Origin: Bacteroidales bacterium
GTDB lineage: Bacteria; Bacteroidota; Bacteroidia; Bacteroidales; F082
DNA: 64,000 bases
Direction: 5' to 3'
NCBI GenBank assembly: GCA_017649945.1
Contig: JAGCFU010000080.1
Location: 220-64,219, forward strand
Shown here: in pieces, positions 25,706 to 44,861 of the stretch
How the letters are laid out: every line of letters starts with the position of its first letter
How positions within the stretch are numbered: the stretch's first letter is position 1
Position numbers and translations under genes: made by a program
The notes under the pieces: generated by a model
Database searches by the model: none
Told to the model about the DNA's origin: nothing
Seen by the model: only the letters and a program-made list of their open reading frames with translations

Positions 25706-28700
25706 ATGAAAAAGCATTTCTTTATTTTCAGCATGTTGCTTGCTTTGGGCGCATTGTCGCTGCAGGCACAGAACGAGGCTAAGATGCTGCGTTTTCCGGC
25801 AATACACGGAAACCAGGTTGTCTTCAGCTATGCCGGTGACCTCTACACCGTCGACATCAACGGCGGAATGGCTCGCCAATTAACCAACGACCCTGACGGC
25901 TTCGAGATCTTCGCAAGATTCTCGCCCGACGGGAAAAACATCGCGTTCACAGGACAGTACGACGGAAACACTGAGGTTTATGTGATACCTTCACAAGGCG
26001 GTGAGCCTCAACGTGTTACGTATACCGCGACCCTCGACCGCGACGACCTGTCCGACCGCATGGGACCAAACAACATCGTGATGACTTGGAGAGACAACGA
26101 GAACATCGTATATCGCTCACGCAGAATCACTTGGGACGATTTCGTGGGTCAGCTTTTCGTTGCCAACATCAACGGCGGGCTCGGTGAGCAGCTGCCGTTC
26201 GAGGAAGGTGGCTGGATTAGCTATTCGCCTGACGGTCAGAAGATTGCGTTCAACCGTGTGATGCGTGAGTTCCGTACCTGGAAATACTACAAAGGCGGTA
26301 TGGCCGACGATGTCTGGATCTTCGACTTCAACACGAAAGAACTCACAAACATCACTAACAACGTCGCACAAGACATCTTCCCGATGTGGGCAGGCAACAA
26401 GATTTATTTCTGCTCCGACCGCGACCGTACGATGAATATCTTTTGCTATAACCTTGATAATAAACAACTTACAAAGGTTACCGACTACACATATTACGAT
26501 GTGAAATATCCTTCGCTCGGCGACAACGACATCGTTTATGAAAACGGCGGTGAGCTTTATCGCATGAGCCTGAAAGACAACTCAATACACAAGATTCCGG
26601 TGAAAATCATCGGCGACGGCATCTCATCGAGAACGAAATATGTCGACGCATCGAAATTCATCACCTCAGGCAACGTGTCACCCGACGGCAAACGTATCGT
26701 TTTGGGTGCTCGCGGCGATATCTGGACGTTGCCTGTAGAGGAAGGAATCACAAGGAATCTCACGAAATCCGACGGCGTCCACGACCGCAACGTCGCTTGG
26801 TCACCGGATGGCGAATACATCGCTTACATCTCCGACCGCACGGGCAACGACGAGCTTTACATCCAGAAACAGGATGGCAAGGAAGAAGCGATACAACTCA
26901 CTGACCCTCAAAAGGTTTCGGAGACTTACAAATACCAGCCTTCATGGTCGCCGGATAGCAAGAAAATCGCTTGGTACGACAAGATGAACCGCCTCATGAT
27001 GATTGACGTCGCCACCAAAAAAGTGACTGAGGTAGCTAAGAGTCAGGACGGCGAAATGAGCGATTTCAGCTGGTCGCCCGACAGCAAATGGATTGCTTAC
27101 TCAGATGAGAATATGTCGGAATTCAGCAGGATCTTCATCTATAACGTTGATACTCAGAAGACTGAAGCCGTCACCGACACTTGGTTCAATTCGGCAAATC
27201 CGGCCTTCGACAAGAACGGAAAATATCTGTACTTCACCTCTGAACGTGATTTCAACCCGACTTACAGCAGCGTGGAATGGAACTACGCCTACTGCGAGAT
27301 GAGCCGCATCTACATGATTACCTTGCAGAAAGACACTCCGTCGCCGTTCCTTGCAAAGAACGACGAGGTAACTGTCGAAAAAGGCGAGGCAAAAGATGAG
27401 AAACCTGGCAAATCTGACAAAGGCAAAGACAAGAAAAAAGATTCCAAGAAAGAGGATGACAAGTCGATAAAGATTGATTTTGAAGGCATTACGAGCCGTA
27501 TTATCCCGTTGCCAGACCTCAATACCGCATATTATTACTACCTTCAGGCCGTAGAAAACGGACTTTATTACATGACATGGGGCAATCGTGGTGGCGGTTT
27601 GTATTACTACAACCTGGAAGAAAAAGAAGCCACGAAAATCGGCGATTTCAACGGTTATTACCTGACTCCTGACGGCAAGAAGATGGCTCTCAGAAAACGT
27701 TGGGATATTACTGTTATCAACACTCCGACGCGTGAGGTGAAAGGCATCGAGAAGCCTATCGACCTGTCAAACATGAAGAAATGGGTCAACCTGCATGAGG
27801 AATGGGCTCAGATATACACCGAGGCATGGCGTCAGATGCGCGACTTCTTCTATGCGCCTAACATGCACGGCAACGACTGGCCTGCAATACACGACAAATA
27901 CTCTGTTTTGATTCCTTATTGCGGCGACCGTAACGACGTCAACTACCTCATCGGCGAGATGATTGGCGAATTGAACATCGGGCATGCCTATACCGGAGGC
28001 GGCGACCGTACACCGGCAAAACGCCTTAAACTCGGTCTGCTCGGCGCTCAGCTGAAACGCGACGACAGCGGTTATTACCAAATCGACAAGATTTTGAAAG
28101 GGGAGAGCTGGAACGACGCTACAATATCACCATTGACGGAAATCGGCGTCAACGCTAAGGAAGGCGACTTCATCGTGGCAGTCGACGGCGTCCCGACAAA
28201 AGACATGAACAACATCTTCGAGGCATTGGTTGACAAAGCCGGGAAACCTGTCGTTTTAAGCCTTAACAGCAAAGCTTCAGAAGCTGGCGCCCGTGACGTC
28301 GTGGTGAAACCGCTGGAAAGCGAGAACTCGCTATATTACTACAACATGGTGCAGAACAACATCGAGAAAGTCAGCAAGGCGACTAACGGTCAGGTAGGTT
28401 ACATACACATCCCTGACATGGGTCCTGAAGGGTTGAACGAGTTTGTGAAATATTTCTATCCGCAGCTCACAAAGAAGGCTTTGATTATCGACGACCGTGG
28501 CAATGGTGGCGGCAACGTCTCACCGATGATTATCGAGCGTCTGCGTCGTGAGGCCTCGATGTGGACCGTGACACGCAACGGCAACGCAGCCGAAATCAAG
28601 CCTAACCAGATGATGAACGGACCTAAAGTGCTGTTGTTCAACAAATATTCAGCATCCGACGGCGACTTGTTCCCGTGGCAGTTCAAACATTACAAGCTCG

Positions 28701-28999
28701 GCACCACCATCGGCACACGCTCATGGGGCGGCGTCGTAGGTATCCGTGGAAGCCTCCCGTTCATCGACGGCGGCACCTTGAACCGTCCTGAGTTCGCTCC
28801 GTTCGACCAAAACGGCAACTGGATCATCGAAGGTCACGGCGTCGACCCTGACATCGTCATCGACAACAATCCTTACGACGAGTTCAATGGCATTGACGCT
28901 CAGCTTGATAAGGCTATCGAAGTCATCCTCGAACAGATGAAAGATTGGCCTGAGGCACCGGCAATTCCGGCATGGCCCGACAAGACCAACGTGAAGTAA
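25706..28999 (+). CDS. Tricorn-type protease (peptidase S41B) with beta-propeller and PDZ regions
   Basis: 1097 aa with a signal peptide, LRFPAIHGNQVVFSYAGDLYTV and repeated TolB-like SPDG motifs. It also has the C-terminal S41 core. Confidence 0.8.
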   Translation: MKKHFFIFSMLLALGALSLQAQNEAKMLRFPAIHGNQVVFSYAGDLYTVDINGGMARQLTNDPDGFEIFARFSPDGKNIAFTGQYDGNTEVYVIPSQGGEPQRVTYTATLDRDDLSDRMGPNNIVMTWRDNENIVYRSRRITWDDFVGQLFVANINGGLGEQLPFEEGGWISYSPDGQKIAFNRVMREFRTWKYYKGGMADDVWIFDFNTKELTNITNNVAQDIFPMWAGNKIYFCSDRDRTMNIFCYNLDNKQLTKVTDYTYYDVKYPSLGDNDIVYENGGELYRMSLKDNSIHKIPVKIIGDGISSRTKYVDASKFITSGNVSPDGKRIVLGARGDIWTLPVEEGITRNLTKSDGVHDRNVAWSPDGEYIAYISDRTGNDELYIQKQDGKEEAIQLTDPQKVSETYKYQPSWSPDSKKIAWYDKMNRLMMIDVATKKVTEVAKSQDGEMSDFSWSPDSKWIAYSDENMSEFSRIFIYNVDTQKTEAVTDTWFNSANPAFDKNGKYLYFTSERDFNPTYSSVEWNYAYCEMSRIYMITLQKDTPSPFLAKNDEVTVEKGEAKDEKPGKSDKGKDKKKDSKKEDDKSIKIDFEGITSRIIPLPDLNTAYYYYLQAVENGLYYMTWGNRGGGLYYYNLEEKEATKIGDFNGYYLTPDGKKMALRKRWDITVINTPTREVKGIEKPIDLSNMKKWVNLHEEWAQIYTEAWRQMRDFFYAPNMHGNDWPAIHDKYSVLIPYCGDRNDVNYLIGEMIGELNIGHAYTGGGDRTPAKRLKLGLLGAQLKRDDSGYYQIDKILKGESWNDATISPLTEIGVNAKEGDFIVAVDGVPTKDMNNIFEALVDKAGKPVVLSLNSKASEAGARDVVVKPLESENSLYYYNMVQNNIEKVSKATNGQVGYIHIPDMGPEGLNEFVKYFYPQLTKKALIIDDRGNGGGNVSPMIIERLRREASMWTVTRNGNAAEIKPNQMMNGPKVLLFNKYSASDGDLFPWQFKHYKLGTTIGTRSWGGVVGIRGSLPFIDGGTLNRPEFAPFDQNGNWIIEGHGVDPDIVIDNNPYDEFNGIDAQLDKAIEVILEQMKDWPEAPAIPAWPDKTNVK

Positions 29000-30008: not shown

Positions 30009-30593
30009 ATGACCGAGCGCCATCCGTTGCAACCCTTTCTTCCAGCAAATGCTAAAGTGCTGTTTTTAGGCAGTTTTCCGCCGCCGAAGAAGCGCTGGTG
30101 CATGGACTTCTTTTACCCGAATTTCATGAACGACCATTGGCGTCTGGAAGGCGAGATTTGGTTTCACGACAAGAACCATTTCATCGATTTGGAGTGTAAA
30201 TGCTTTAAAAAAGATGAGATAATCGCATTTTTACATGAAAAAGGAATAGCGTTTTTCGACACTGCAATGGCTGTAAACCGGTTGAAAGACAACGCTTCAG
30301 ATGCGTTTCTTGAAATAGTTGAGAGAACCGACATCAGAGTTTTATTGGCGAAGATGCCACAATGCAAAGCCATTGCCACGACAGGGGAGAAGGCTACCGT
30401 TGAAGTCTGTGAATATTTCAATATCAATGATATTCCGGCGCCGAATAGCAAAATCACATTGGAAAACGACCTCGTTTTATATCGTTTGCCATCATCATCG
30501 CGAGCTTATCCGCTGGCGTTTGAAAAGAAAGCGGAGGCGTATCGGAAGATGTTTGAAGAGGTTTTAAGCTGCCAGCAGTGTCATAAACAGTAA
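30009..30593 (+). CDS. Uracil-DNA glycosylase superfamily protein (family 6 / hypoxanthine-DNA-glycosylase-like)
   Basis: Contains LFLGSFPP...FFYPNFMNDHW, which resembles the GSFPS...YY.HP.N.FW signature of this superfamily. The assignment is by motif only. Confidence 0.5.
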   Translation: MTERHPLQPFLPANAKVLFLGSFPPPKKRWCMDFFYPNFMNDHWRLEGEIWFHDKNHFIDLECKCFKKDEIIAFLHEKGIAFFDTAMAVNRLKDNASDAFLEIVERTDIRVLLAKMPQCKAIATTGEKATVEVCEYFNINDIPAPNSKITLENDLVLYRLPSSSRAYPLAFEKKAEAYRKMFEEVLSCQQCHKQ

Positions 30594-30830
30594 AACAAAC
30601 AATGCTATTGTAACAATCGCCAGTATGCTTCCGAGGCAGCCCCAGTTTCGGTCGCCATCAGGCAGCTTATCCGATAAAAGGCAGAAAATCAAGCCGATGA
30701 AAGGTGTGAACAGCACCGACAGGAAGAACGTCCAGCCGAAGCCTATTCTGCGTCTTGCGCCGAGCAGTCCCACCAAAGCGGCGACAAAAGTGTCAGAGAT
30801 AAGACCGAAAAGTAATAATGTGAAAGCCAT
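30564..30830 (-). CDS. Small hydrophobic membrane protein
   Basis: 88 aa with three hydrophobic segments. Its 3' end overlaps the convergent UDG-like gene by 30 nt. Confidence 0.4.
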   Translation of the reverse strand: MAFTLLLFGLISDTFVAALVGLLGARRRIGFGWTFFLSVLFTPFIGLIFCLLSDKLPDGDRNWGCLGSILAIVTIALFVLLFMTLLAA

Positions 30831-30873
30831 AATGTCATAATTTGATGCAAAGATAAAAACTATTTTTAAATAA

Positions 30874-31455
30874 TTACAAAATTGATAAAATTATCTCTTT
30901 CCCGATTTCCATTTTTGAGAAAGCGAACATTCTTTTTCCTAAATCTTTTAATGAAGCCCCGATGTGATATACTTCATTGTCAATAATCATAAATCTGTCA
31001 TGAGATTTATTGAACTGCTCAATGTTTATTGGCTGATACTGGGAATTGTGCTTTTTTAAATCCAGTTTAAGATTTTCAGAAATATGAGCTGTGTAGATTG
31101 TAGCGGAAACGTTGTCTTCTCGTTTGTTTAGAATTTTTAGAACCGAATCATCAACATAATTATCAATTAGTATAATTTCGTTCTTTGCTTTTCTTACTAA
31201 ATCAGAGATGAAGTTGTAGGCATCAAATATTTGTCCATCAAGTCGAACTACCGAGAAATTCTCGGAGGTTGAATCGGAGTCAATTTCATGTTCTTCATAA
31301 ATGTTTTTTAGATGTAAACTTATATTGTCTGTTGAACAGTCAAACAATATGGCCATTTGTGTTTGTGTCAGCCACACTGTTTCATCAGAAACCTTAACTT
31401 CAAGTTTAACGTTACTACTCTCTGTTTTGTAAACAACAACATTGTGATTATCCAT
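30874..31455 (-). CDS. RhuM-like N-terminus fused to a C-terminal domain seen on Bacteroidales ORF6N-type proteins (R-M-associated DNA-binding protein)
   Basis: N-terminus VVVYKTESSNVKLEVKVSDETVWLTQTQMAILF...LHLKNIYEE. C-terminus LIDNYVDDSVLKIL...SHDRFMIIDNEVYHIGASLKDLGKRMFAFSKM. The gene is AT-rich. Confidence 0.55.
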   Translation of the reverse strand: MDNHNVVVYKTESSNVKLEVKVSDETVWLTQTQMAILFDCSTDNISLHLKNIYEEHEIDSDSTSENFSVVRLDGQIFDAYNFISDLVRKAKNEIILIDNYVDDSVLKILNKREDNVSATIYTAHISENLKLDLKKHNSQYQPINIEQFNKSHDRFMIIDNEVYHIGASLKDLGKRMFAFSKMEIGKEIILSIL

Positions 31456-31504
31456 TATTTACAATTTTAAAAGATTCCAAAAATAGCGTTGAATTCCTTG
31501 GTTG

Positions 31505-31512
31505 CAAAATTA
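31505..31512 (-). promoter_or_regulatory. -7 promoter box (TAATTTTG) for 30874..31455
   Basis: Matches TAnnTTTG about 50 nt upstream of the ATG at 31455. Confidence 0.45.
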
Positions 31513-31621
31513 AGTCGTAATTCCTTATGTGTCAAGGATTTTAGTGTTAAATTTTGTTAACAAAAGTTGCGGAATTTTGGAGGAAATCTTAAAAAATTTT
31601 AACAATTATTATGCCTTTATT

Positions 31622-31798
31622 GGCCCCCGCTGCAGCCGTCCTAAGGCGGTGATCCTCATGGCGGGGAGTGCTTTCTGCTGAAAGCAAACGACTGGGCGCC
31701 CCGTCTTGAGTATCATCCGCTTAGTCCGGCTTTTAGGCCCTCGCTGCCCCGCAATCGGGCCGGGCCCCCGCGCCGCGAAGCGAAGTGGGGGCGAAGCC
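31622..31798 (-). repeat. GC-rich structured repeat, left copy (inverted relative to 43855..44030)
   Basis: Its reverse complement aligns end to end with 43855..44030, roughly four-fifths identical by eye. Several differences are paired across predicted helices. Confidence 0.85.
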
Positions 31799-32027
31799 AT
31801 GATGGAATGTGCAAAAAATGCAAATTGCTTTTTAAACCAATCTCAAAACTCATCGTTTAAATAGAATCTAATGTCAATTTTTCATCTTATTATTAAAAAT
31901 ATGTTTTCTATATTTGTTTTATTGCCTGCTTTTCATATAATGGCAGAGGTGCTATAATTAACAAAATGCAAAATAATTACACTGATATTTTTTTTCTGAA
32001 AAAAGTTGAAAATTGAAAAAAAATAAT

Positions 32028-32035
32028 TAAATTTG
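32028..32035 (+). promoter_or_regulatory. -7 promoter box (TAAATTTG) for the island operon(s)
   Basis: Matches TAnnTTTG 32 nt upstream of the ATG at 32067. A second match (TATATTTG) lies at 31909..31916. Confidence 0.45.
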
Positions 32036-32066
32036 CAAATCAAGTATTTTACATAAATTATATAGG

Positions 32067-33410
32067 ATGAAAAGCACTAACAATAAGAGTTTTAACGAGT
32101 TATCTTTAAAAAAAGATAAAGAAATGGTGTTTGACATCCATCAAAAAGAAAAGGTTCATGCTAAAAAAAGTAAAAACATTACACACACTGTAATAGATTT
32201 GTTCGCTGGCTGCGGAGGTTTGTCGCTTGGTTTATATCAAGCCGGTTGGGAAGGTCTTTTTGCCATTGAAAAGAATGCTTTTGCTTTTGAAACGCTTAAG
32301 TTCAATTTGATCGATAACAAGAAGCACTTCCAATGGCCTGAATGGCTGCCTCAAACCGAGCATGACATCAATGAAGTGTTGGAGAAATATCCGAAACAAT
32401 TGAGAGCATTGCGGGGAAAGGTGGATTTGGTAGCTGGAGGGCCTCCGTGTCAGGGCTTTTCCATGGCTGGAAAGCGTGTTGAGGATGATGTGCGCAATCA
32501 GTTGGTGTTTTCGTACATTAAGTTTATTGACTTGGTACAGCCGAAAATGATTCTTTTCGAAAATGTGAAAGGTTTCACTTATGCTTTCGATAAAGGGAAA
32601 TCGGCTTCTTCCGAGAATGAACCTTATTCCCACAAAGTGATTCGTGGGTTGGGAGATTTGGGTTACAACGTGAAACCCCATGTGATTGATTTTTCAGAGT
32701 ATGGTGTCCCTCAACGTCGCAAGCGTTTTATCCTTGTTGGGATTCGAAAAGAACTGGGTGCTCCTGATGGTTTCGAGGATTTGTTGAAAGCCAATCGAGA
32801 TTCATTCTTGGCTCAAAAAGGTTTGAAGTCCATCAATACCTTGCAGGATGCCATTTCTGATTTGCTTCGTTCCAACGGAGAAGTTTCCTCTCCTGACCGC
32901 AAAGGTTTTTATTCTGGAATATACGGCAAGAAGAAACTGACAGCGTACCAAAAACTGATGCGGGGCGATTATCCCCAAATGCACGAAATAGCGGATAGCC
33001 ATAGTTTTGCAAAGCACAAACAGGAGAAAATTACTTGTTACAAACGATTGTTGGCTGAATATCCAAAACGTGGCAAACGAATTGATGGGGAAGCCCGCGA
33101 ACAATGGGGCATCAAACAACGGGGGATCACCATTTTGGATCCCAATGTGGTTTCGCCGACCATTACCGGCAGTCCGGATGACTATTTGCACTATTCCGAA
33201 CCACGCATCATGACGGTTCGCGAATGTGCCCGCATACAGTCGTTCCCTGATTGGTACGAGATTAAAAAGAAATACACTACCGGTGGCAAGATGCGCAAGT
33301 TGGAAGTGCCCCGTTACACCCAAATTGGTAACGCCATTCCGCCACTATTTGCGGAGTTGGCGGGGAAAGTTTTATTAAATATGCTACGATATGGAACAGA
33401 TGCAGTTTAA
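32067..33410 (+). CDS. DNA (cytosine-5)-methyltransferase
   Basis: Motifs I DLFAGCGGLSLG, IV GGPPCQGFS, VI ENV, VIII QRRKR, IX TVRECARIQSFPD and X GNAIPP. Confidence 0.9.
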   Translation: MKSTNNKSFNELSLKKDKEMVFDIHQKEKVHAKKSKNITHTVIDLFAGCGGLSLGLYQAGWEGLFAIEKNAFAFETLKFNLIDNKKHFQWPEWLPQTEHDINEVLEKYPKQLRALRGKVDLVAGGPPCQGFSMAGKRVEDDVRNQLVFSYIKFIDLVQPKMILFENVKGFTYAFDKGKSASSENEPYSHKVIRGLGDLGYNVKPHVIDFSEYGVPQRRKRFILVGIRKELGAPDGFEDLLKANRDSFLAQKGLKSINTLQDAISDLLRSNGEVSSPDRKGFYSGIYGKKKLTAYQKLMRGDYPQMHEIADSHSFAKHKQEKITCYKRLLAEYPKRGKRIDGEAREQWGIKQRGITILDPNVVSPTITGSPDDYLHYSEPRIMTVRECARIQSFPDWYEIKKKYTTGGKMRKLEVPRYTQIGNAIPPLFAELAGKVLLNMLRYGTDAV

Positions 33411-35664
33411 AATAAGTTCATTTTTAAAAGATCTTATTGGACGAGAATTGATAACTGATGAATTCGTGGCAGTTTTCGAATTGGTTAAGAATTCTTTTGA
33501 TGCACATGCAAAAAAAGTAAAAGTTATTTTTGAAAATCAATATGACCCTACAAACGCCAGAATCATTATTTGGGACAATGGACGAGGAATGGACAAATCA
33601 GATTTACAAAACAAATGGTTATTTGTTGCGCATTCTGATAAAAGGGATGGAACGGAAGACAAAGATTACAGAGATAAAATCCAACACAAACGCACTTTTG
33701 CCGGAGCTAAAGGTGTTGGTCGCTTCTCTTGTGATAGATTAGGAAGATATTTAAATCTTATCTCAATTAAAGACGCACCTAATGCTTTAATAGAGAATCT
33801 CAAGATAGATTGGACTTCTTTTGAACAAGACTCCAACAAGGAATTCATAGATATTAAAGTTGAACATAATACTTTATCAGCAACAAACTATGAAGATTTT
33901 CATCAAGGAACTATTTTAGAGATCTCGGGGCTGCGAGATATATGGGATAGAGATAGGATTAAGAAATTGAAAGTATCATTAGAAAAGCTTATTAATCCAA
34001 TTCAAGGGAATGATGTTGACGATTTTGCTATTGAGATTATTGCTGACGATGAGTTATTACAAGATCAGAAAGAAAAAGATGATAGAGACAAGGTTAATGG
34101 TGTTGTTCGAAATATTGTCTTTGAGCGTTTGGGATTAAAGACAACACAAATTAAAGTGAGTATTACAAATCATGGTGGAACAATCACAACAACATTAACA
34201 GACAGAGGCACAGAGATATATACTTTAACAGAACGCAATCCATATGACAAATTATATGATATAGATATTGTATTGTTTGTTTTAAATAGAGCTGGAAAAA
34301 TCAACTTCAAAAAAATAATGGGTGTTGATTCCGTTAAATACGGGTCTGTCTTTATTTACAAGAATGGTTTCCGCATATATCCTTTTGGAGAGGAAGGTGA
34401 TGACACCTTGCAAATAGACCGACGCAAGCAACAAGGTTTCTATCGTTATTTGGGAACCCGTGATTTATTGGGACGTATTGAGATTAATGGCGAACGTTCT
34501 GATTTAAGAGAAACCACTAGTCGAGACGGTGGATTTATTAAAAATGAATCATGGAATCAGTTAGTTGAGTTTTTCTATGACAAAGCTTTACGCCGTCTTG
34601 AAACTTATACTGTGGGCATCATTAAATGGGGTGATGAAAAGTTTGACAAGGAAACTGGTGAAATTATTCAACCAGAACTAAAGCCCGAAGACGTTAAAGA
34701 CAAAATATTGGACATTATTTCTAATCTGACAAAAGCCAAAGAGGTAATAGATGTTCAATATAATCAGGATTTTTTAAAAATCTATGAATCTAAACAAGAA
34801 AAAAGCGCCACTCAACTTGTGAAAAATCTCACCCGCATGGCTGAAGAGACAAATAATCCACAATTTGTCAAACAAGCGAAAGCTGTAGAGAAACAAGTTA
34901 GCGAGATGAGACAATCCATTGGCGAACTTGAACGGGATAATGCCACCAAAACTGAAGAGAATAAAAATATTAAAAAAACTGTATCGCAATTACAAACAGA
35001 AAATTTATTCTTGATATCGGATGTCACAAATGATACCAAAGAGTTTAAAAGTTTGCATCATCACATCACGCACACTTCTGATTTGATTGCTGAATATATT
35101 TCCATTGCTATTGAAGCATTAAGTAAAGGCGACAACAAACGCGTGAAAGAATCGTTGCAATACATAGAAATAGAGAATCAGAAAATTTTGACATTATCCA
35201 ATTTCGTAAGCAAAGCAAAATTTGATACGAAAACAACTAAAATAAACGATGACATTATCAGTTTTGTTTACGAATACATAAACAATCTATATGTAATTAC
35301 TCATAAGAAACTAATTGTCAATGTTGAAAAAGCTTCGTTCAAATTTGTCACAAGGTTTGTGCCAATTGAAATGATAATACTCATTGATAATTTGCTGAAC
35401 AACTCTGAAAAAGCCAAAGCTCAAAATGTTTCGATAAGCTGGGTACTTGAGGAAAGCACCTTGACAATGCATTATGCTGATGATGGGCACGGCATTAAGC
35501 AAGAAGTTTTGCCACATGTATTTGAATACCGTTTTTCCACTACTAACGGAGGTGGTTTAGGATTGTATTATGTGAAAGAAATAGTTAACAAGATGAAAGG
35601 CTCGGTCCAAATTGATAACAGCAAGTCTAAAGGTGTGGAGTTTATTATAACTTTGAAGAAATGA
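33391..35664 (+). CDS. Cytoplasmic dual-GHKL protein: MORC/HATPase_c_3-like N-terminal ATPase plus a C-terminal histidine-kinase-like module
   Basis: N-terminal Bergerat motifs are ELVKNSFDA, WDNGRGMD and GAKGVGRFS. A coiled coil leads to the His-rich segment SLHHHITHTSDLI (aa 555-567). C-terminal kinase boxes are IDNLLNNSEKA, DDGHGI, VFEYRFST and GGGLGLYYVKEIV. No TM segment is seen. The start overlaps the MTase stop by 20 nt. Confidence 0.75.
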   Translation: MEQMQFKISSFLKDLIGRELITDEFVAVFELVKNSFDAHAKKVKVIFENQYDPTNARIIIWDNGRGMDKSDLQNKWLFVAHSDKRDGTEDKDYRDKIQHKRTFAGAKGVGRFSCDRLGRYLNLISIKDAPNALIENLKIDWTSFEQDSNKEFIDIKVEHNTLSATNYEDFHQGTILEISGLRDIWDRDRIKKLKVSLEKLINPIQGNDVDDFAIEIIADDELLQDQKEKDDRDKVNGVVRNIVFERLGLKTTQIKVSITNHGGTITTTLTDRGTEIYTLTERNPYDKLYDIDIVLFVLNRAGKINFKKIMGVDSVKYGSVFIYKNGFRIYPFGEEGDDTLQIDRRKQQGFYRYLGTRDLLGRIEINGERSDLRETTSRDGGFIKNESWNQLVEFFYDKALRRLETYTVGIIKWGDEKFDKETGEIIQPELKPEDVKDKILDIISNLTKAKEVIDVQYNQDFLKIYESKQEKSATQLVKNLTRMAEETNNPQFVKQAKAVEKQVSEMRQSIGELERDNATKTEENKNIKKTVSQLQTENLFLISDVTNDTKEFKSLHHHITHTSDLIAEYISIAIEALSKGDNKRVKESLQYIEIENQKILTLSNFVSKAKFDTKTTKINDDIISFVYEYINNLYVITHKKLIVNVEKASFKFVTRFVPIEMIILIDNLLNNSEKAKAQNVSISWVLEESTLTMHYADDGHGIKQEVLPHVFEYRFSTTNGGGLGLYYVKEIVNKMKGSVQIDNSKSKGVEFIITLKK

Positions 35665-36608
35665 GAATAAAATATAAGATACTCTGGGTAGATGATCGCA
35701 AGGATGAGTTCGAAAGGTTGTCTTATGATAAACGGATTATTGAATATGTCAAGAATCTGTTTTTCGAACCGCACTTAACATTCTGTGAGAATGTCGAGGA
35801 AGCTAAAGACATAATTAGTCATAATCATTTTGATGTCATTTTTTCAGATTATAACATCAATGATGGATCTTCCGGAGAGCAAGGAGACGGATTTATTTCA
35901 TATATTCGTTCCAGAAATGTGAATACTGAGGTGCTGTTTTATTCTGCCATGAAGGAATTGCCCACTTTAAAATTAAATCGTATAGTCTTTTTCTCGTTGG
36001 CGGGTTTGCAAGATGGTTATCGCAAGTTGTTAGAACAAATGGAAGGGCTCATATATCTCACAACGGAAAAACTACATGATTTGACGGCTCTGCGTGGTCT
36101 TGTTATGGCAGAGGTGAGTGAACTGGATGTCTTAATGGAACAAATCATTTTAGCATATTTCAATTCTCCAGAGAGAATGCGTACATTCCATGACCACATC
36201 ACAGCGAATCGAGAAGAAACTTGGCATAAAATGCTAAATTCTAGTACTCAGTGCGATAAGCAATGTTTTCACATATGGCGTGAAAAAGATCTAACAGAGT
36301 ATGTCAGCAAATTAGATTCTTCACAAAAAGCGCGTGCCATTAACATTGTGCTTTCAGATATTGACTCTGCTCATGCTATTTGTACAGATAGCAAATTTTT
36401 CAAGAACTATGATGATTCTATCATTCTCAATCGGAATAATTTAGCTCACTGCATTAGCGAAAAAGATAAGAATGGAAATGAAATCTTAAAAACATGGAAA
36501 GGAGAGAAAATATACAATGATGAAGAATTCCGCATTATGAGAGCGAATATTATTAAATATCACAACATGTTTACAACATTATTGACTACATTAACCGAAT
36601 CCGAATAA
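35661..36608 (+). CDS. Receiver (REC) domain protein with a HEPN-like C-terminal domain
   Basis: REC features are ILWVDDRKD (acidic pocket), FDVIFSDYNI (putative phospho-Asp D63), VLFYSAMKELP and K98. The C-terminal ~180 aa are helical and carry RNNLAH (R258-H263), which matches HEPN Rx4-6H. There is no HTH. The ATG overlaps the upstream stop (ATGA). Confidence 0.6.
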   Translation: MRIKYKILWVDDRKDEFERLSYDKRIIEYVKNLFFEPHLTFCENVEEAKDIISHNHFDVIFSDYNINDGSSGEQGDGFISYIRSRNVNTEVLFYSAMKELPTLKLNRIVFFSLAGLQDGYRKLLEQMEGLIYLTTEKLHDLTALRGLVMAEVSELDVLMEQIILAYFNSPERMRTFHDHITANREETWHKMLNSSTQCDKQCFHIWREKDLTEYVSKLDSSQKARAINIVLSDIDSAHAICTDSKFFKNYDDSIILNRNNLAHCISEKDKNGNEILKTWKGEKIYNDEEFRIMRANIIKYHNMFTTLLTTLTESE

Positions 36609-36740
36609 AGTATGGTTATAACAATATAATAGATTTTACAGTAAAACGAATAAAAAAGATTATGCATCAATTATGCCTATAGAACATTGCCCAGACCGCG
36701 ATTACTTGGCATATCATAGAGATAGAATTTTTAAAGGGAT

Positions 36741-38378
36741 ATGAAACAAAACATTTTAATGAAGAAAGAACAGACATTAAAACAAAAGGTAGCCGATTTA
36801 ATCGCACGGCATATGATTTGTTATTCCGAACAAGATTGTGCACAGATTCTTGTTGGACTTAATGTTATTTCCTCGTTTAATTTGAATATAGACCATCCAC
36901 AAGCATCGATTAACCTTAATCTTTTCCAAGAATCTTTGGCGAAAATCAATGAAAAAGAATTGAGGAGGCGTGATGAAGGTGTATACTATACCCCAAAAGA
37001 CGCAACAGAATATGTTGTTGCTAACACATACCTTAATTACGTTTGTCCAGACAACGTTCAAGTACATCCCGTTGATAAATGTTTGCAGATACTAACCCAA
37101 ATCAATAGTAGTAAGTTGGTTTGCGCTAAAGTTTTTGACCCAACATGTGGAACAGCCGAATTCTTGTTAAGTGCAATAAATCTAAAGTTGCAGATAATTG
37201 ATTGTGATTCCGATGACGCAATATTAAATCTTGTGTCAACAATATATGGCAACGATATTGCAGAAGAATCCATCTTTTTATCCAAGGTGAGATTGTTCTT
37301 TGCAGTTGTTAAGTTTCTTCAGGACAAGAATAATTCTGTAAGATTAGCAAAGATTTTAAATAAGAACTTCACCTCATTGGATTATATAATTAACCATAAC
37401 ATATCGCCAAAATATGATATAATTGTGGGTAATCCGCCATATGTAGAATACCGCAAATTACCCGTAAAGCCAACCACAAACTATGGAAACACATACGCCG
37501 ATGTTTTGCTAAATTCTATTAATGCAGCAAAGCAAAATGGTGCCTTGGGTTTCGTGATTCCCATATCATTTGTATCCACCGGACGCATGAAAGCTATTCG
37601 TGAGTATTCATATTCAAAGTTAAGCAAAATGTTTTTGCTTAACTTTGCGGATCGTCCTGATTGCTTATTTGATGGCGTTCACCAAAAACTTACAATATTC
37701 TTCGGAATCAAAGGCAGAAATAAATGCTGTGTCTACTCATCCAGTTACTACCATTGGTATAGCGAGGAACGAGATTATTTGCTCAGCAACGCAAGTGTTT
37801 TACCCGTTATTCCTTATGAAAAATACATTCCTAAAATCGGTAATGATTTTGAGCGGAGTATATTTGATAAAATAATGAGTGCTAAAGGGCTGACCTTAGC
37901 GGACATCACATCAGACACAAAAAGCAATACTTTGCTATATCTTAACATGCGTGGATGTTTTTGGATGAAAGCATTCTCTTTTAATCCGGGGTCAAATGAA
38001 TATAAGCAATTCAAAAGCCCGAAGGAAATGCAACCGTATATCCTTGCCATCTTAAATTCCAATCTCTATTTCCTTTATTGGACAATAGTTTCTGATTGTT
38101 GGCATATAACTGGAAAGGAAATATCCGAATTTATCATACCTATTAAAGACGTCAACTTCAAAGCTTTTAGAAATATATACAACAATATTGAAAAAAAATT
38201 AGAGGAAACCAAGAAGTATATCGGTAGCAAACAAACGGCTTATGAGTACAAACATAAAGATTGTAAGCCAGAGATAGACGCTGTTGATGATGCTTTGAAA
38301 GGTATATATAATCTCTCAGATGATGAAGTTGAATATTTAAGAAACTATAAAGTCAAATATAGAACTAGTAATGGCTAA
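36741..38378 (+). CDS. N6-adenine DNA methyltransferase (gamma class, Eco57I/TaqI-like)
   Basis: Motif X GVYYTPKD, motif I VFDPTCGTAEFLL and motif IV VGNPPY. Confidence 0.85.
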   Translation: MKQNILMKKEQTLKQKVADLIARHMICYSEQDCAQILVGLNVISSFNLNIDHPQASINLNLFQESLAKINEKELRRRDEGVYYTPKDATEYVVANTYLNYVCPDNVQVHPVDKCLQILTQINSSKLVCAKVFDPTCGTAEFLLSAINLKLQIIDCDSDDAILNLVSTIYGNDIAEESIFLSKVRLFFAVVKFLQDKNNSVRLAKILNKNFTSLDYIINHNISPKYDIIVGNPPYVEYRKLPVKPTTNYGNTYADVLLNSINAAKQNGALGFVIPISFVSTGRMKAIREYSYSKLSKMFLLNFADRPDCLFDGVHQKLTIFFGIKGRNKCCVYSSSYYHWYSEERDYLLSNASVLPVIPYEKYIPKIGNDFERSIFDKIMSAKGLTLADITSDTKSNTLLYLNMRGCFWMKAFSFNPGSNEYKQFKSPKEMQPYILAILNSNLYFLYWTIVSDCWHITGKEISEFIIPIKDVNFKAFRNIYNNIEKKLEETKKYIGSKQTAYEYKHKDCKPEIDAVDDALKGIYNLSDDEVEYLRNYKVKYRTSNG

Positions 38379-39498
38379 ATATAACGTCATAGATTTGTTT
38401 TCAGGCTGTGGAGGTTTTTCTGTAGGTTTTGAAAGAGCGGGCTATCGTATCATTAAGGCGGTAGAATACGACAAAACAATTGCCGTTTCTTACTCGCATA
38501 ATCATAAGGCAACAATTATGTATGCAGAAGATATAGGAAAGATAGACAATGAAGATCATTTTACATGCGGAGAATCAGATGTAATCATTGGGGGCCCCCC
38601 ATGTCAAGGTTTCTCTATGGCAGGTGCGAGAATTCGTGAAAAAAATGCATTTATGAACGACCCGCGAAACTTTCTTTTTCGTCACTATGTGAACGTTGTC
38701 AAAATAGTTCGTCCAAAAGTATTCTTGTTGGAAAATGTTAAGGGAATCTTGTCAAAAGACAAAGGCGCCATATTCAAAGAGATAGTCAGTGCTTTTAGCA
38801 ACCCTGATAATTTTGAAGGGGATAGATATTATTTGCACTACAAAGTTTGCAAGGCTGTAGAATATGGAGTACCTCAACAACGAGAACGTGTTGTTGTGAT
38901 AGGCGTGCTCAATCACGATTTTAATATAGACGAAGTATTTGAGTTTGCCCGGAGAAATATCCTTAAAAAAGATAAGCACTTCTTTGATGCTGTATCATTG
39001 CGAGATGCAATTTCTGATTTAGGTCACCCGACAATTGATGGCATTACGGAATTACAACCTTGTCAATCCAGGTATCAAGAATTCTTGCGTGAGGGGTGCG
39101 ATAAAACTTCAAATCACATAGCATCTAAACATAATGCAATTGCTATTAACCGGATGCAACATATTGAAGTGGGACAAAACTGGGAAGTATTAAATGAAGA
39201 TATCCACTCTGTGCATAGCGGTGCATATGGTCGATTGGCATGGGACAAGCCAACTATGACAATAACAACTCGTTTTGATACACCAGCTGGAGGAAGATTT
39301 ATTCATCCGGTAGAAAATAGGACTCTAACGCCGCGCGAAGCTGCCCGCATACAGTCTTTCCCTGACAGTTTTGAGTTCTTAGGAAATAAAACAATTGTTT
39401 GTAGACAAATAGGAAATGCGGTACCACCGAAAATGGCATACTTTTTAGCAAATGTAGTAAAACATATATTTTATGAATATGGGAAAACTAAGCGATGA
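38371..39498 (+). CDS. DNA (cytosine-5)-methyltransferase (second copy, different TRD)
   Basis: Motifs DLFSGCGGFSVG, GGPPCQGFS, ENV, QQRER, TPREAARIQSFPD and GNAVPP. It overlaps the upstream gene by 8 nt. Confidence 0.9.
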   Translation: MAKYNVIDLFSGCGGFSVGFERAGYRIIKAVEYDKTIAVSYSHNHKATIMYAEDIGKIDNEDHFTCGESDVIIGGPPCQGFSMAGARIREKNAFMNDPRNFLFRHYVNVVKIVRPKVFLLENVKGILSKDKGAIFKEIVSAFSNPDNFEGDRYYLHYKVCKAVEYGVPQQRERVVVIGVLNHDFNIDEVFEFARRNILKKDKHFFDAVSLRDAISDLGHPTIDGITELQPCQSRYQEFLREGCDKTSNHIASKHNAIAINRMQHIEVGQNWEVLNEDIHSVHSGAYGRLAWDKPTMTITTRFDTPAGGRFIHPVENRTLTPREAARIQSFPDSFEFLGNKTIVCRQIGNAVPPKMAYFLANVVKHIFYEYGKTKR

Positions 39499-41257
39499 AA
39501 AACTCGCCAAATTGAAAACCTTGGATAGTCAAGGAGGATTTTGGTATATCACAAAGCAAAATCTAGTATTTCGAGATTTATGCTTTATGGCAAAAATTCT
39601 TGAGGCATGGGATGACCGTAAGGAGGAGAATTATGAAAGTTTCTTTAATAAGCACAAGATTCTTCCTGATTTTGGTGCTTTTGATCCCCTTATTGCTCAT
39701 CGTGCTACAAAAAATTGTGAATACATCGGATTGACTGTGCCTTCTGAAAAATACAGTGCACAAAATTTGACTCCGTTCTATTTCGCGCTAAAGAAGTTGT
39801 GTGGAGGCGATTTTAACCAATTGTCTTCTTATCCTCAAATTATTGATAAACAATTGGAACGGATGTTTATTGATTCGCGTACAAATAAAACATATACTAC
39901 TAATTTTCAAATTTGCCCATTTATGTTTTTGTTCAAAGTTTTGCTCCTTATAGGAGATATTACAAAATCGTATAAAATTTCGACAGCAGAATTTAAGCTG
40001 TTTGTTGCAACTGCACAGAGTTGGAATGAATACTTTGAAGTTGTAGAATCTATTTTAAGATATAGAACCGACGCGGATTTCCAAGCACAATGCAATAAGA
40101 ACAACACAAAAGTTAGCGATGTTCGTTACAATATATTAGCTCAAAATCATTCTCAGCTTGCAGTTACAAGTAGCGATATAGCTATATTGGAAAATGAAGT
40201 TAGAAATGTACGTAGAAAAGTAGCAGAATATGAATTAAGTGAAAGAGTTCAATCTGCAGAAGAAATTTTTACAGCGGGTTCTTTTGTTGAAAAAACATTC
40301 CAGAAAATATATTACGGTGCTCCTGGAACCGGCAAAAGCCACGAAGTAAAAAAGCAAACTGAAGAATTGTTGGATAGTGGCGAAGAAAGAGACTTGCCCA
40401 ATGTTTTCCGCACCACTTTCCATCCTGATACGGATTATGCTTCTTTCGTGGGATGTTATAAGCCTACCATGAAACCGACATCCAAAGAGGAAAAGACTCT
40501 CACCGGCAAAGATGAAGAGATAGTATATGAATTTGTTCCGCAGGTCTTTACAGATGCGTACGTTTATGCGTATAATAATTCCGACCAACCGACCTACTTG
40601 GTTATAGAGGAAATCAACCGTGGTAACTGTGCACAGATATTTGGCGACCTGTTCCAGCTATTGGACAGAAACGGAGGCGTTTCCGAATATAAAATCAAAG
40701 CAGACAAAGACTTGGCGCTATACCTCCGTGACAAATTGGATGCAGACTCCCAAGGCATCCAAGACGGAAAACTATGCTTGCCTGCCAACCTGCATATCCT
40801 TGCCACCATGAACACCTCCGACCAGAGTCTGTTCCCTATGGACAGCGCCTTCAAACGCCGTTGGGAATGGGAATACGTGCCCATCAATTATGACACAACC
40901 ATCAAATCGGGCGAGTTTGAAGTTACCATCGGTGACAAGTCCTATTCATGGGTTGTATTTATCAAGCAAGTGAACGAGAAGATCTTCGACCTTACCCAAA
41001 GCGAAGACAAACAAATGGGTAACTTTTTCATCAAACAATCCATTGATGAAAAAGGGTTCAAGAGCAAAGTGATGTTCTACCTTTGGTACGAAGTGCTACG
41101 TGACGAAACGGAAAACAACAAATACTTCTTCTACAAGAAAACTATCGTTGACGGCAAAGAAGTGTCAAGCAAATTCACATTTAAAGACCTATTCGGAGAT
41201 AAAGCGACGGAGACATTGCAGCAGTTCATGGATTACTTGAAGGTTGACCCTAAATGA
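39473..41257 (+). CDS. McrB-like AAA+ GTPase restriction subunit (LlaJI R1-like) with an unassigned ~270-aa N-terminal domain
   Basis: Walker A GAPGTGKSH, then FHPDTDYASFVG, VIEEINRGN, ATMNTSDQS (McrB NTAD-like) and AFKRRWEW. Confidence 0.85.
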   Translation: MNMGKLSDEKLAKLKTLDSQGGFWYITKQNLVFRDLCFMAKILEAWDDRKEENYESFFNKHKILPDFGAFDPLIAHRATKNCEYIGLTVPSEKYSAQNLTPFYFALKKLCGGDFNQLSSYPQIIDKQLERMFIDSRTNKTYTTNFQICPFMFLFKVLLLIGDITKSYKISTAEFKLFVATAQSWNEYFEVVESILRYRTDADFQAQCNKNNTKVSDVRYNILAQNHSQLAVTSSDIAILENEVRNVRRKVAEYELSERVQSAEEIFTAGSFVEKTFQKIYYGAPGTGKSHEVKKQTEELLDSGEERDLPNVFRTTFHPDTDYASFVGCYKPTMKPTSKEEKTLTGKDEEIVYEFVPQVFTDAYVYAYNNSDQPTYLVIEEINRGNCAQIFGDLFQLLDRNGGVSEYKIKADKDLALYLRDKLDADSQGIQDGKLCLPANLHILATMNTSDQSLFPMDSAFKRRWEWEYVPINYDTTIKSGEFEVTIGDKSYSWVVFIKQVNEKIFDLTQSEDKQMGNFFIKQSIDEKGFKSKVMFYLWYEVLRDETENNKYFFYKKTIVDGKEVSSKFTFKDLFGDKATETLQQFMDYLKVDPK

Positions 41258-43332
41258 AAATACTCATTGAGCAATACGGCTACGACAAGGGCAGGTTGAG
41301 TTCCATACTCGACCCACACTATTTCACTGAACTGCGTGACGGGAAAGCCAAGATACCCTATGTGGGTTATTTCCTGTCGCACAAGATTCCGGACATGGTG
41401 TTTATCCTGCCGAAAGTATTCATCATCGAAGGCAAAGCCTTTGGTGAATACGATCCGGAAGAGATTATCGACTTCGAGCAACTCAAGCCGGAGCACAAAG
41501 CCAATGTGTTCAGCCTTTCGGTATGGATATATCGCGCCATCAAACTCTATTTCCAACACAAAGACAAGATAGGAGAGGAATCGGAGATATTGCAGAACGT
41601 GGTTTCTCACCAAGGTCCGAGAAGCGAGACAATGATAGATATTGTGCTTTCTCTGCTGAAGTTTGACAAAGAGCACAAGAACCTGTTTGCCTATATCACC
41701 CGCCTCAAGCACTCCGGACAAAACAAAATCCATTGGCAGAAAACAATCTCCCGGACACAGGCACTCATCCAAAACGGTGTACCTATTTACCTCCAACCGC
41801 ACACCAAACAGAAAGACATTAACTTCGATGAAGAGCTGATTGTACTGTTTTACTCAGTACTGAACTATCTCGCTCAGGAATTCAAGTTCAATGTGCGTCC
41901 GGCATTTGGGTACGACTTACTCAAACCCGAGACCATCCAATCCATGATAGACAGTGGGAAAGGCGTTCATGTGCTCCGTCAAAACCGCCGCAAGTACTTC
42001 ACGGACGAGATGGTACAGTTGTGGAACCTACTCTTCACCTTCTTCGAGCAATCCCAATATGTCCAAAGCAAAGATAATGACGACGAACAAGCTATGCTGG
42101 TTCGCGAGTTCAACCTTGTCTTTGAAGATATGATTGACTCACTCATCGGCGATAGTGATATATCAGGAGGACTGAAAGAGCAAAAAGATGGTAAAATCAT
42201 CGACCATATCTACCGCGATAATGCACTGATAGAAGATAAGAAACAAATCTATTTCATTGGTGACAGCAAATATTACAAGGATGACAACGACATCGGTCCG
42301 AATTCTATCTACAAGCAGTTCACATACGCCAAGAACGTCATCCAGTACAATATTGATTTCTTCAACAGCAGGCCTCAAGAGTTTGAGGCGGAGAACCTGC
42401 AATATCGGGATAACACTACCGAAGGCTACAACATCACCCCGAACTTCTTTATTCGAGGTCACCTGCAAGCCGGGCAACTGAATGACTACAGCAATGCTAA
42501 TTTGAAATTGGAGAAGATGAATGATGGTAAGAGCCATAGGATTTCGTACCATTTTGAGAATCGGCTCTTTGACCGTGACACGCTGATTTTGCAAACGTAT
42601 AGCATTAATTTCCTGTTTGTGCTGGCTTGTTATGTGCAAGGGGCAGGCGAGCACACACAAGAAATCAGAAGTATATTCCGTGAAAATATCAAGAAGGTTC
42701 TTCAATTGCAATATGGTTTCTTTGCCATCAAGCCGAGAGTTCATGACGAGACAGAGCAGTTCTTGCATGACAATTTTCAACAGGTGCTTGGCAAAGTATT
42801 TGCACCGTATGGTGGTTCGACCAATTGCATGACTTTAGCTTTAGATAATGATGCTGATAATACGGAAACACTTGCGCTGATAGATAAGTATTTTTACAGG
42901 AAACCTATTCCAAATAATCAACTGGATGTAAAACCGGATACATTGTTTGACACTGACGAGCAGACGATTATGCATGCTGTGGAACTTTCGGTGGATATGC
43001 ATGATAAATGTGTCATTACGGCACTTGTCAGAAAAGATGACAAGAGTTTTGACAAATTTAATATCGGAGGAGCTAAAGAATATGTCATGGAGTCGATTCC
43101 GGCTGTTAGTTTATGGAGCATCAAATACTTAATGCCGATGGCCTCATATGATTTTATTGGATATTATGAGGTGACGGACATAAAGTTTAATCCAATGACA
43201 AAAAGATTGCGGTTCATGTTGGGGCAGTTCTTCCCGTTGGGCGATTTACCGGTTAACGTGGCTGGGAAAATGAGGCACGGTGAATTGATTAACCTTGAAT
43301 ACGTACAAAAATTATATAACAAGGAAATATAA
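41254..43332 (+). CDS. LlaJI/McrC-like restriction endonuclease subunit
   Basis: 692 aa. The ATGA overlap with the McrB-like gene suggests translational coupling. The PD-(D/E)xK-like block is IIDHIY...(x)...YFIGDSKYYKD (D317, D337-S-K339). Confidence 0.65.
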   Translation: MKILIEQYGYDKGRLSSILDPHYFTELRDGKAKIPYVGYFLSHKIPDMVFILPKVFIIEGKAFGEYDPEEIIDFEQLKPEHKANVFSLSVWIYRAIKLYFQHKDKIGEESEILQNVVSHQGPRSETMIDIVLSLLKFDKEHKNLFAYITRLKHSGQNKIHWQKTISRTQALIQNGVPIYLQPHTKQKDINFDEELIVLFYSVLNYLAQEFKFNVRPAFGYDLLKPETIQSMIDSGKGVHVLRQNRRKYFTDEMVQLWNLLFTFFEQSQYVQSKDNDDEQAMLVREFNLVFEDMIDSLIGDSDISGGLKEQKDGKIIDHIYRDNALIEDKKQIYFIGDSKYYKDDNDIGPNSIYKQFTYAKNVIQYNIDFFNSRPQEFEAENLQYRDNTTEGYNITPNFFIRGHLQAGQLNDYSNANLKLEKMNDGKSHRISYHFENRLFDRDTLILQTYSINFLFVLACYVQGAGEHTQEIRSIFRENIKKVLQLQYGFFAIKPRVHDETEQFLHDNFQQVLGKVFAPYGGSTNCMTLALDNDADNTETLALIDKYFYRKPIPNNQLDVKPDTLFDTDEQTIMHAVELSVDMHDKCVITALVRKDDKSFDKFNIGGAKEYVMESIPAVSLWSIKYLMPMASYDFIGYYEVTDIKFNPMTKRLRFMLGQFFPLGDLPVNVAGKMRHGELINLEYVQKLYNKEI

Positions 43333-44829: not shown

Positions 44830-44837
44830 TACCTTTG
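44830..44837 (+). promoter_or_regulatory. -7 promoter box (TACCTTTG) for the Fic gene
   Basis: Matches TAnnTTTG 25 nt upstream of the ATG at 44862. Confidence 0.45.
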
Positions 44838-44861
44838 CAAAGACAACATTTAGCATTTATA

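Follow-up and report, generated by a model that had tools for sequence, protein, structure and literature searches.

We analysed a 64,000-nucleotide stretch of DNA (hereafter the window) from a Bacteroidales bacterium (GTDB lineage F082; assembly GCA_017649945.1, contig JAGCFU010000080.1, positions 220 to 64,219 of the forward strand). The window contains three genes in the order methylase, kinase and partner, which overlap by 20 nucleotides (nt; methylase and kinase) and by 4 nt (kinase and partner). An earlier note on this DNA, written from the letters by themselves, had singled out the kinase and proposed that one polypeptide carries two Bergerat (GHKL) ATP-binding folds. It viewed that protein alone and missed the overlapping methylase gene upstream as well as the receiver-HEPN gene downstream. 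The three genes, referred to here as the trio, are:

32067..33410, forward strand: C-5 cytosine DNA methyltransferase, an open reading frame (ORF) of 447 residues (Pfam DNA_methylase, NCBIfam dcm)
33391..35664, forward strand: soluble paraMORC-type ATPase with a histidine-kinase transmitter, 757 residues, ATG start
35661..36608, forward strand: partner of 315 residues, a receiver (REC) plus a HEPN-type predicted RNase, whose ATG overlaps the kinase stop codon (ATGA)

The methylase matches DNA_methylase with an E-value of 5.7e-59 and dcm with 3e-47. An alignment of 71 methylases shows no conservation over the first approximately 40 codons (32067..32186; majority-residue frequency 0.02-0.12), so the true start probably lies downstream of 32067.

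The kinase is identical to MBO7470041.1, an 'ATP-binding protein' from a Bacteroidales metagenome-assembled genome, and matches Pfam HATPase_c_3 and HATPase_c, both far over the cut-off. The AlphaFold2 (AF2) model places a GHKL domain at residues 1-200 and an alpha/beta domain at residues 618-757, with a beta-rich region, two long helices and a helical hairpin between them:

33391..33990, forward strand: N-terminal GHKL ATPase of the MutL/MORC/Hsp90 branch, residues 1-200 (HATPase_c_3)
34027..34761, forward strand: beta-rich middle domain, residues 213-457 (AF2 secondary structure)
34765..35019, forward strand: helical linker, a predicted coiled coil leading from the sensor module to the DHp domain, residues 459-543 (AF2 helices 459-486 and 490-543)
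35038..35211, forward strand: DHp helical hairpin, residues 550-607 (AF2 helices 550-578 and 582-607)
35242..35661, forward strand: histidine-kinase catalytic ATP-binding (CA) domain, residues 618-757 (N, G1, F and G2 boxes)

The two GHKL folds belong to different branches of the superfamily, the N-terminal one being of the MutL/MORC type and the C-terminal one a kinase CA domain. HATPase_c_3 covers residues 26-157 (E 1.2e-24, 87 bits versus a cut-off of 25) and HATPase_c covers residues 662-756 (E 1.9e-26, 93 bits versus a cut-off of 26.4). Together with a profile search of the PDB sequences and with alignments to kinase cores, these matches bear out the claim of two separate Bergerat folds. 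The earlier note had also placed the protein in the cytoplasm. The highest 19-residue Kyte-Doolittle mean is 1.29; the kinase has no membrane segment and is soluble.

Conservation was assessed in an alignment of 82 sequences: besides the window protein it contained 79 relatives found in other genomes and two more distant ones encoded on plasmids. In the ATP-binding motifs, those of the N-terminal as well as the C-terminal domain, each residue is identical in 77 to 82 of these sequences. As motif residues are invariant across the alignment, we take both predicted nucleotide sites and the predicted acceptor histidine to be under selection. A query with residues 1-545 returned 482 clusters (50% identity) at E <= 1e-30. 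Most of the best 150 clusters have a length of 720-920 residues, indicating that the sensor module rarely occurs without the kinase attached.

The N-terminal ATPase motifs are E30-x3-N34-x2-D37, D62-x-G64-x-G66, G105-x2-G108-x-G110 and G173-T174. Every residue named here is identical in 82/82 sequences except T174 (81/82), and the first three motifs lie in the segments ELVKNSFDA (residues 30-38), WDNGRGMD (61-68) and GAKGVGRFS (105-113), where the first reading had found them. When residues 1-470 were used as a profile against PDB sequences, the matches were solely MutL/PMS1/MLH1, MORC2 and Hsp90/HtpG, with no kinase CA domains among them. NCBIfam assigns the same region to the BbrUII/HgiDII restriction-enzyme family (NF050001, residues 27-216, E 3e-18, at 66 bits far under the 550-bit cut-off) and to MutL (E 4e-10). 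Judged by its residues, the N-terminal domain has retained all the catalytic positions with which MutL/MORC ATPases hydrolyse ATP, which goes beyond a mere binding pocket. The earlier proposal that this ATPase module is the input domain of the kinase fits all the evidence, and by analogy with the MutL and MORC relatives the module may clamp DNA in an ATP-driven manner.

The beta-rich middle domain occupies the position of the S5/transducer domain of MORC and MutL proteins. Conservation in the protein as a whole is highest in a block of this domain, roughly residues 315-381, which includes YKNGFRIYPFG and TSRDGG (invariant columns in two alignments); FIYKNGFRIYPFGEEGDD, which had already been picked out in this middle region, lies at residues 321-338. 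The coiled coil expected next in the chain corresponds to the two AF2 helices of the linker (459-486 and 490-543), for which Pfam gave weak matches of the coiled-coil type.

The transmitter follows. SLHHHITHTSDLI, which starts at residue 554, sits at the H-box position as had been suggested, with the small correction that among the three histidines of an HHH run it is the central one, H557, that never varies (82/82). This predicted phospho-acceptor (codon 35059-35061) is located on the hairpin formed by helices 550-578 and 582-607, just before the CA domain. phmmer aligned the HHH run to the SHELRTP box of 5c93, at an offset of one residue from H557, and no Pfam DHp model matched the kinase. 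The H box reads H-H-I-T-H, with histidine instead of glutamate at position H+1 (H557-H558, 35059..35064). H-E is present at the H box of L081 and L082, the two distant relatives from plasmids.

The CA domain displays the N box NLLNNSEKA (residue 667), the G1 box DDGHGI (697), the F box FEYRF (711) and the G2 box GGGLGL (720), all four of which had been noticed before. N671, G720, G722 and G724 are found in 82/82 sequences, an aspartate at D697 in 77/82 and F711 in 78/82. Residues 545-755 align to DHp and CA cores of the WalK, HK853 and SrrB type. Foldseek superimposed approximately 230 columns of the kinase model on complete DHp and CA cores (4u7o, HK853) with E about 1e-11, and matched the CA domain of WalK (3sl2) with a target-normalised template-modelling (TM) score of 0.83 and a root-mean-square deviation of 2.3. 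The C-terminus is thus, by alignment and model, a complete kinase core made of a DHp hairpin and an adjacent CA domain, as the earlier note had proposed.

The partner gene encodes two domains:

35661..36014, forward strand: REC domain, residues 1-118 (Pfam Response_reg, Foldseek)
36015..36605, forward strand: HEPN-assigned all-helical C-terminal domain, residues 119-315

Response_reg was matched at E <= 0.01 by 38/38 members of an alignment of partner homologues, and some partners from related loci pass the cut-off of this model. Foldseek with the partner model retrieved REC domains with a target-normalised TM-score of about 0.7. The predicted phospho-acceptor of the receiver is D63 (codon 35847-35849). 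It is present in 68/68 partner sequences, as is a serine or threonine at position 95 ([ST]95), which in the window partner is S95, and an acidic pair is formed by D11-D12.

The C-terminal half of the partner carries the motif R258-N-N-L-A-H263 (36432-36449), and R145-G146 and R294 are also conserved. In the partner alignment R258 and H263 are found in 68/68 sequences and N259 in 66/68. Three lines of evidence led us to assign this half to the HEPN RNase superfamily. Full-length homologues that are 42-57% identical to the partner score 28.6-30.7 bits with HEPN_RiboL-PSP, whose gathering score is 28.4. When C-terminal halves were scanned alone, the sole families matched by more than one member were HEPN families (RiboL-PSP, Swt1 and MAE_28990). 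Finally, R-[ND]-x-x-[AG]-H (Rx4H) is present in 67/67 full-length partners from related loci. The AF2 model of the partner (predicted local distance difference test, pLDDT, 87) shows a C-terminal half that is mainly helical with one beta hairpin; a profile of this half found nothing among PDB sequences. We also considered the partner as a transcription factor and rejected this idea, as Pfam scans found no DNA-binding domain. RNase activity of the partner is a prediction from family membership.

We compared the trio with related loci. With each species represented by a single genome, relatives of the kinase turned up in 506 genomes, and the best 80 loci were examined. These loci span at least nine phyla and include Bacteroidota, Bacillota, Acidobacteriota, Planctomycetota, Spirochaetota, Verrucomicrobiota, Pseudomonadota and Patescibacteria. 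A methylase gene lies directly 5' of the kinase gene in 76 of the 80, and a receiver gene lies directly 3' in 70, of which 67 encode a full-length REC-HEPN protein and three gave a short match to REC only. The genes of the trio are on the same strand in these loci, and the gaps between them typically measure -8 to -4 nt. Of the ten loci in which no receiver was detected, three are cut by contig ends and the other seven contain ORFs, recognised by inspection, that are candidates for a stand-alone or divergent receiver, one of them confirmed by Pfam. The order methylase-kinase-receiver is therefore near-universal among the examined loci, and beyond the trio the neighbouring genes are not conserved.

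In a few loci the effector is swapped: a stand-alone REC with an HNH nuclease, or other proteins, take the place of REC-HEPN. One locus encodes a stand-alone receiver of 130 residues followed by an HNH nuclease of 282 residues (L076:8280-9553). Four others (L057:8248-9620, L062:8283-9693, L063:8262-9622 and L064:8277-9637) have a candidate receiver of 222-231 residues that carries a different extension and has no Pfam match; the next protein in these four, of 231-243 residues, belongs to no family that we recognised, shares a conserved 'AHG ... C-x-S-C-D-S-N' and might be a Cys/His hydrolase. The two distant GHKL-kinase relatives, on plasmids of Bacteroides finegoldii (L082:4001-8633) and Enterobacter mori (L081:3995-7217), each have a receiver-like gene of their own. 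In the Bacteroides plasmid an HNH nuclease and an N-6 methylase follow, and for the Enterobacter relative no methylase is listed alongside in a plasmid gene table that is incomplete.

We propose that the trio is a conflict module (defence or addiction) resembling a restriction-modification (R-M) system, composed of a C-5 cytosine methylase, a paraMORC-histidine kinase and a REC-HEPN RNase, and we put the probability of this reading at roughly 0.55. It builds on what was observed, namely the intact ATP folds, the invariant DHp histidine, REC aspartate and HEPN R-x4-H, the gene order, the overlaps and the defence-gene setting, and the effector modularity of related loci is typical of defence systems. 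Precedents described further below support each link: GHKL ATPases that control nucleases, HEPN domains fused to paraMORCs, the His-Asp relay of Detocs, and the R-M enrichment found around kinase and receiver pairs of this kind. In this module the methylase would mark the cell's own DNA. The GHKL ATPase and the middle domain would form a dimerising, ATP-dependent unit that contacts DNA and senses what state it is in; the simplest such cue would be target sites that lack methylation on DNA entering the cell. A conformational change might then be passed through the coiled coil to the DHp domain, where the CA domain would phosphorylate H557, and the phosphoryl group would move from H557 to D63 of the partner receiver. 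The phosphorylated receiver, probably by dimerisation, would activate the HEPN RNase, and the ensuing RNA cleavage would arrest the cell or the invader. We infer the sensing of DNA or methylation, the direction of the switch (kinase-on versus kinase-off), the RNase activity with its targets and any anti-phage effect.

The methylases of these loci bear on a second possibility. The 70 adjacent methylases form one orthologous clade with 45-85% identity to the window methylase (median 56%), and other C-5 cytosine methylases of the same loci are far more distant from it. A methylase that is co-inherited with the kinase as a single clade would suit an addiction module acting by post-segregational killing, in which the kinase monitors methylation of the host chromosome and the RNase is freed once the methylase or the whole island is lost, thereby stabilising a selfish element. 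Its parts and invariant residues would be no different from those of the conflict module proposed above. We found no cognate DNA endonuclease within the methylase-kinase-partner unit, which would also agree with addiction, and selfish R-M behaviour was raised as a possibility in the 2021 study of related kinases discussed below (PMC8011034). Addiction is compatible with defence, however, since R-M systems do both, and the patchy distribution over phyla and the exchange of effectors are just as characteristic of defence. We regard addiction as the proper explanation of the trio as unlikely.

The same comparison speaks to a housekeeping or regulatory two-component system, in which the GHKL domain senses intracellular nucleotides and REC-HEPN trims specific transcripts, for instance those of the neighbouring R-M genes, without discrimination between self and non-self DNA. 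Sensing of nucleoside triphosphates and control of R-M genes were suggested by the authors of the 2021 study (PMC8011034), and GHKL domains are nucleotide binders. Regulation by the partner, if it occurs, would have to take place at the RNA level, as this protein lacks a DNA-binding output domain. Regulation of this kind leaves unexplained, however, why, in many phyla and at nearly all loci, the gene directly upstream is a C-5 cytosine methylase of one clade, why genes beyond the trio are not conserved and why an HNH nuclease can take the place of the effector. The N-terminal domain moreover has the full predicted catalytic set of a hydrolysing MutL/MORC ATPase and not a binding pocket alone. 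We therefore give a purely regulatory role little credence.

Several observations weigh against the conflict module or parts of it. The AF2 model of the kinase is monomeric and of moderate quality (mean pLDDT 68) with low-confidence ATP-lid loops. The middle domain has no sequence match in Pfam or PDB, which makes its S5 fold and DNA binding putative. Methylation as the sensed signal is a step that we infer. The receiver of the window partner matches Response_reg below threshold (E 9e-5, 23 bits versus a cut-off of 30.2). Its C-terminal half scores below threshold for every HEPN model of Pfam, with an E-value of 0.027 for HEPN_MAE_28990, and Foldseek searches of PDB and viral libraries with the full-length partner returned receiver domains only: the REC half took over both sets of results and left the HEPN half unmatched. 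Neither kinase nor partner matches a PADLOC v2 model, and the literature searched, the coverage of which is incomplete, yielded no experiments on any member.

The remaining points concern the phosphotransfer itself. HisKA kinases use an acidic residue (Glu/Asp) at position H+1 in catalysis. In the kinase alignment position 558 is histidine in 60/82 sequences and in the rest mostly glutamine, serine or tryptophan, with aspartate in a few. A conserved lysine after beta5 of the receiver was found in none of the 68 partner sequences. As both the acidic H+1 residue and the beta5 lysine are lacking, the His-Asp chemistry may be atypical or absent. The same two features favour a vestigial phosphorelay, in which kinase core and receiver have become a docking pair that holds a paraMORC-RNase complex together and the N-terminal ATPase cycle alone is in control. 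In function such a complex would match the direct paraMORC-HEPN fusions already known, and direct fusions of GHKL domains to HEPN domains or to nucleases do exist. Conservation across phyla of H557, D63, D11/D12, [ST]95 and the N, G1, F and G2 residues is nevertheless hard to explain without catalysis, and residues of this kind are normally lost in kinase-dead scaffolds. A mere docking role thus appears improbable to us.

A more specific form of the conflict module can be put forward tentatively, and we would not stake more on it than that: a methylation-gated immune phosphorelay in which a MORC-like, DNA-engaging ATPase detects unmethylated non-self DNA but leaves it uncut, and a His-to-Asp transfer, starting from an unusual His-His acceptor box, activates the HEPN RNase. 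In effect, the restriction 'R' would here be replaced by two-component signalling to an abortive-infection effector.

The genomic setting of the trio was inspected in the rest of the window. A low-GC island at 30500..40000 (0.33-0.40 versus 0.50-0.53 just upstream) spans the trio and most of a LlaJI-like R-M operon, and this stretch is consistent with acquired DNA. The genes that follow the trio are:

36741..43332: LlaJI-like R-M operon, directly downstream of the trio
36741..38378: N6 methylase of the LlaJI-like operon
38371..39498: C-5 cytosine methylase of the LlaJI-like operon
39473..41257: AAA_5/McrB-like protein of the LlaJI-like operon
41254..43332: LlaJI-type endonuclease
43332..43847: Vsr mismatch endonuclease, after the LlaJI-like operon
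44835..46046: Fic/DOC-family protein with a VbhA-antitoxin-like N-terminal segment, at the island edge

With two methylases of their own, the LlaJI-like genes are a unit separate from the trio. In the upstream flank, which is of higher GC content, the following genes were found:

18018..22523: TamB, adjoining the UvrD-type helicase gene
22507..25695: UvrD-type helicase of 1062 residues with a C-terminal PD-(D/E)XK nuclease (AddA/RecB-like)
25706..28999: tricorn-type protease, adjoining the UvrD-type helicase gene

No tRNA genes, which were sought as boundaries of a mobile element, are present in the window. A scan for promoters and terminators performed no better than on shuffled sequence, and its sigma-70 consensus may not suit the host. 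A phage-borne element was considered and rejected: the partner has no phage homologue, and the kinase has two weak matches in unannotated phage contigs, both confined to its N-terminal GHKL domain.

Reading the operon as a whole, with methylase, MORC-like kinase and REC-HEPN RNase, leads to a hypothesis, specific and open to test, about a conflict system that is widespread and missing from catalogues. Directly testable it is because the key residues are identified: E30, N34, H557 and N671 in the kinase and D63, R258 and H263 in the partner. The module occurs in 506 species-level genomes of many phyla, including common gut Phocaeicola and Bacteroides, and yet is not in PADLOC v2. If the conflict reading is true, the trio would represent a second, mechanistically distinct defensive two-component family beside Detocs, show a MutL/MORC-type ATPase that is wired to a signalling output and not to a nuclease, and offer a tractable bacterial model of how MORC-like ATPases read DNA or methylation. 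Should the methylation-gated form hold, the kinase would be the first two-component kinase with the modification state of DNA as its input, and a bacterial counterpart of MORC-type epigenetic surveillance.

How does the trio relate to known systems? The earlier note had not recognised its combination of domains from characterised histidine kinases. This stands in so far as the literature searched, incomplete as its coverage is, holds no experimentally characterised member. As a statement about novelty it does not stand: the family is large, and architecture, receiver neighbour and link to C5-methylases were already described computationally (Bellieny-Rabelo, Pretorius and Moleleki, 2021; PMC8011034). 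That comparative genomics study of proteins with HATPase_c_3, DHp (HEF_HK) and HATPase_c domains reported 91.6% linkage to a receiver-like gene, upstream C5-methylases, descent from paraMORCs and a significant enrichment of R-M genes around the kinase/receiver pairs. The HEF_HK/Response_reg_2 systems resemble the window trio in the soluble kinase with HATPase_c_3, a DHp with a core histidine and HATPase_c, in the adjacent receiver gene, the upstream C-5 methylase and the R-M-rich surroundings, and they too include Bacteroides and many other phyla. They differ in that their core histidine is followed by Glu/Asp and their receiver has a conserved lysine, whereas the window system has H-H and no beta5 lysine. 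No output domain was assigned to their receiver protein, whereas the window partner has the assigned HEPN domain. PF19191 (HEF_HK) and PF19192 (Response_reg_2) are unmatched by the window proteins, although these models may be narrow or absent from the library copy used, and they found no match either among 38 receiver homologues, the proteobacterial and plasmid relatives (Enterobacter, Bacteroides) or the Pfam annotations of 240 kinase homologues. Because these matches, the acidic H+1 residue and the beta5 lysine are all absent, the window clade is either a divergent part of the 2021 family or its sister. In the literature searched, with its incomplete coverage, we found neither the HEPN output, the His-His box and the effector swapping nor any paper that combines HEPN, response regulator and GHKL.

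In Detocs an abortive-infection effector is driven by a His-Asp phosphorelay, with both histidine and aspartate required for defence (Rousset et al., bioRxiv 10.1101/2023.01.24.525353). It shares with the trio a soluble sensor kinase, a receiver fused to a toxic effector instead of a DNA-binding domain, and swappable effectors. Detocs differs by its tetratricopeptide repeat (TPR) sensing, a third 'buffer' receiver protein, an ATP nucleosidase effector and the lack of a methylase. Assignment of the trio to Detocs or to another catalogued system was rejected, given no PADLOC match, no TPR repeats and no second receiver gene. Type II R-M systems consist of a methylase and a cognate endonuclease, whereas the trio has the methylase without an endonuclease.

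On the sensor side the trio is closest to the paraMORC GHKL ATPases of R-M systems defined by Iyer, Abhiman and Aravind (2008; PMC2292703). Both have an N-terminal GHKL domain of the MutL/MORC branch with intact motifs and a conserved second domain, both lie beside cytosine methylases, Vsr and nucleases, and both show lateral spread. paraMORC1-5 carry C-terminal nuclease, TIR or unknown domains, or have helicase partners, whereas the window protein carries a histidine-kinase transmitter. HEPN domains fused directly to paraMORCs in R-M neighbourhoods were proposed to be a second line of defence (Anantharaman et al., 2013; PMC3710099). These Ymh-family HEPN-paraMORC fusions, and likewise the anticodon nucleases of the PrrC/RloC type, also pair an ATPase sensor with a HEPN RNase in R-M neighbourhoods. 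They are direct fusions without His-Asp signalling, however, and the window HEPN domain is closest to RiboL-PSP, Swt1 and MAE_28990 and not to Ymh. Finally, BbrUII/HgiDII (NF050001) and the validated GHKL-Shedu protein VcSduA have a related N-terminal GHKL domain and a role in defence, and VcSduA loses defence upon mutation of the ATPase glutamate (E27A) or of the nuclease (PMC12137116). In these enzymes the ATPase and the DNA nuclease that it controls share one chain, whereas in the window system the ATPase would act through a phosphorelay on a predicted RNase carried by a separate protein.

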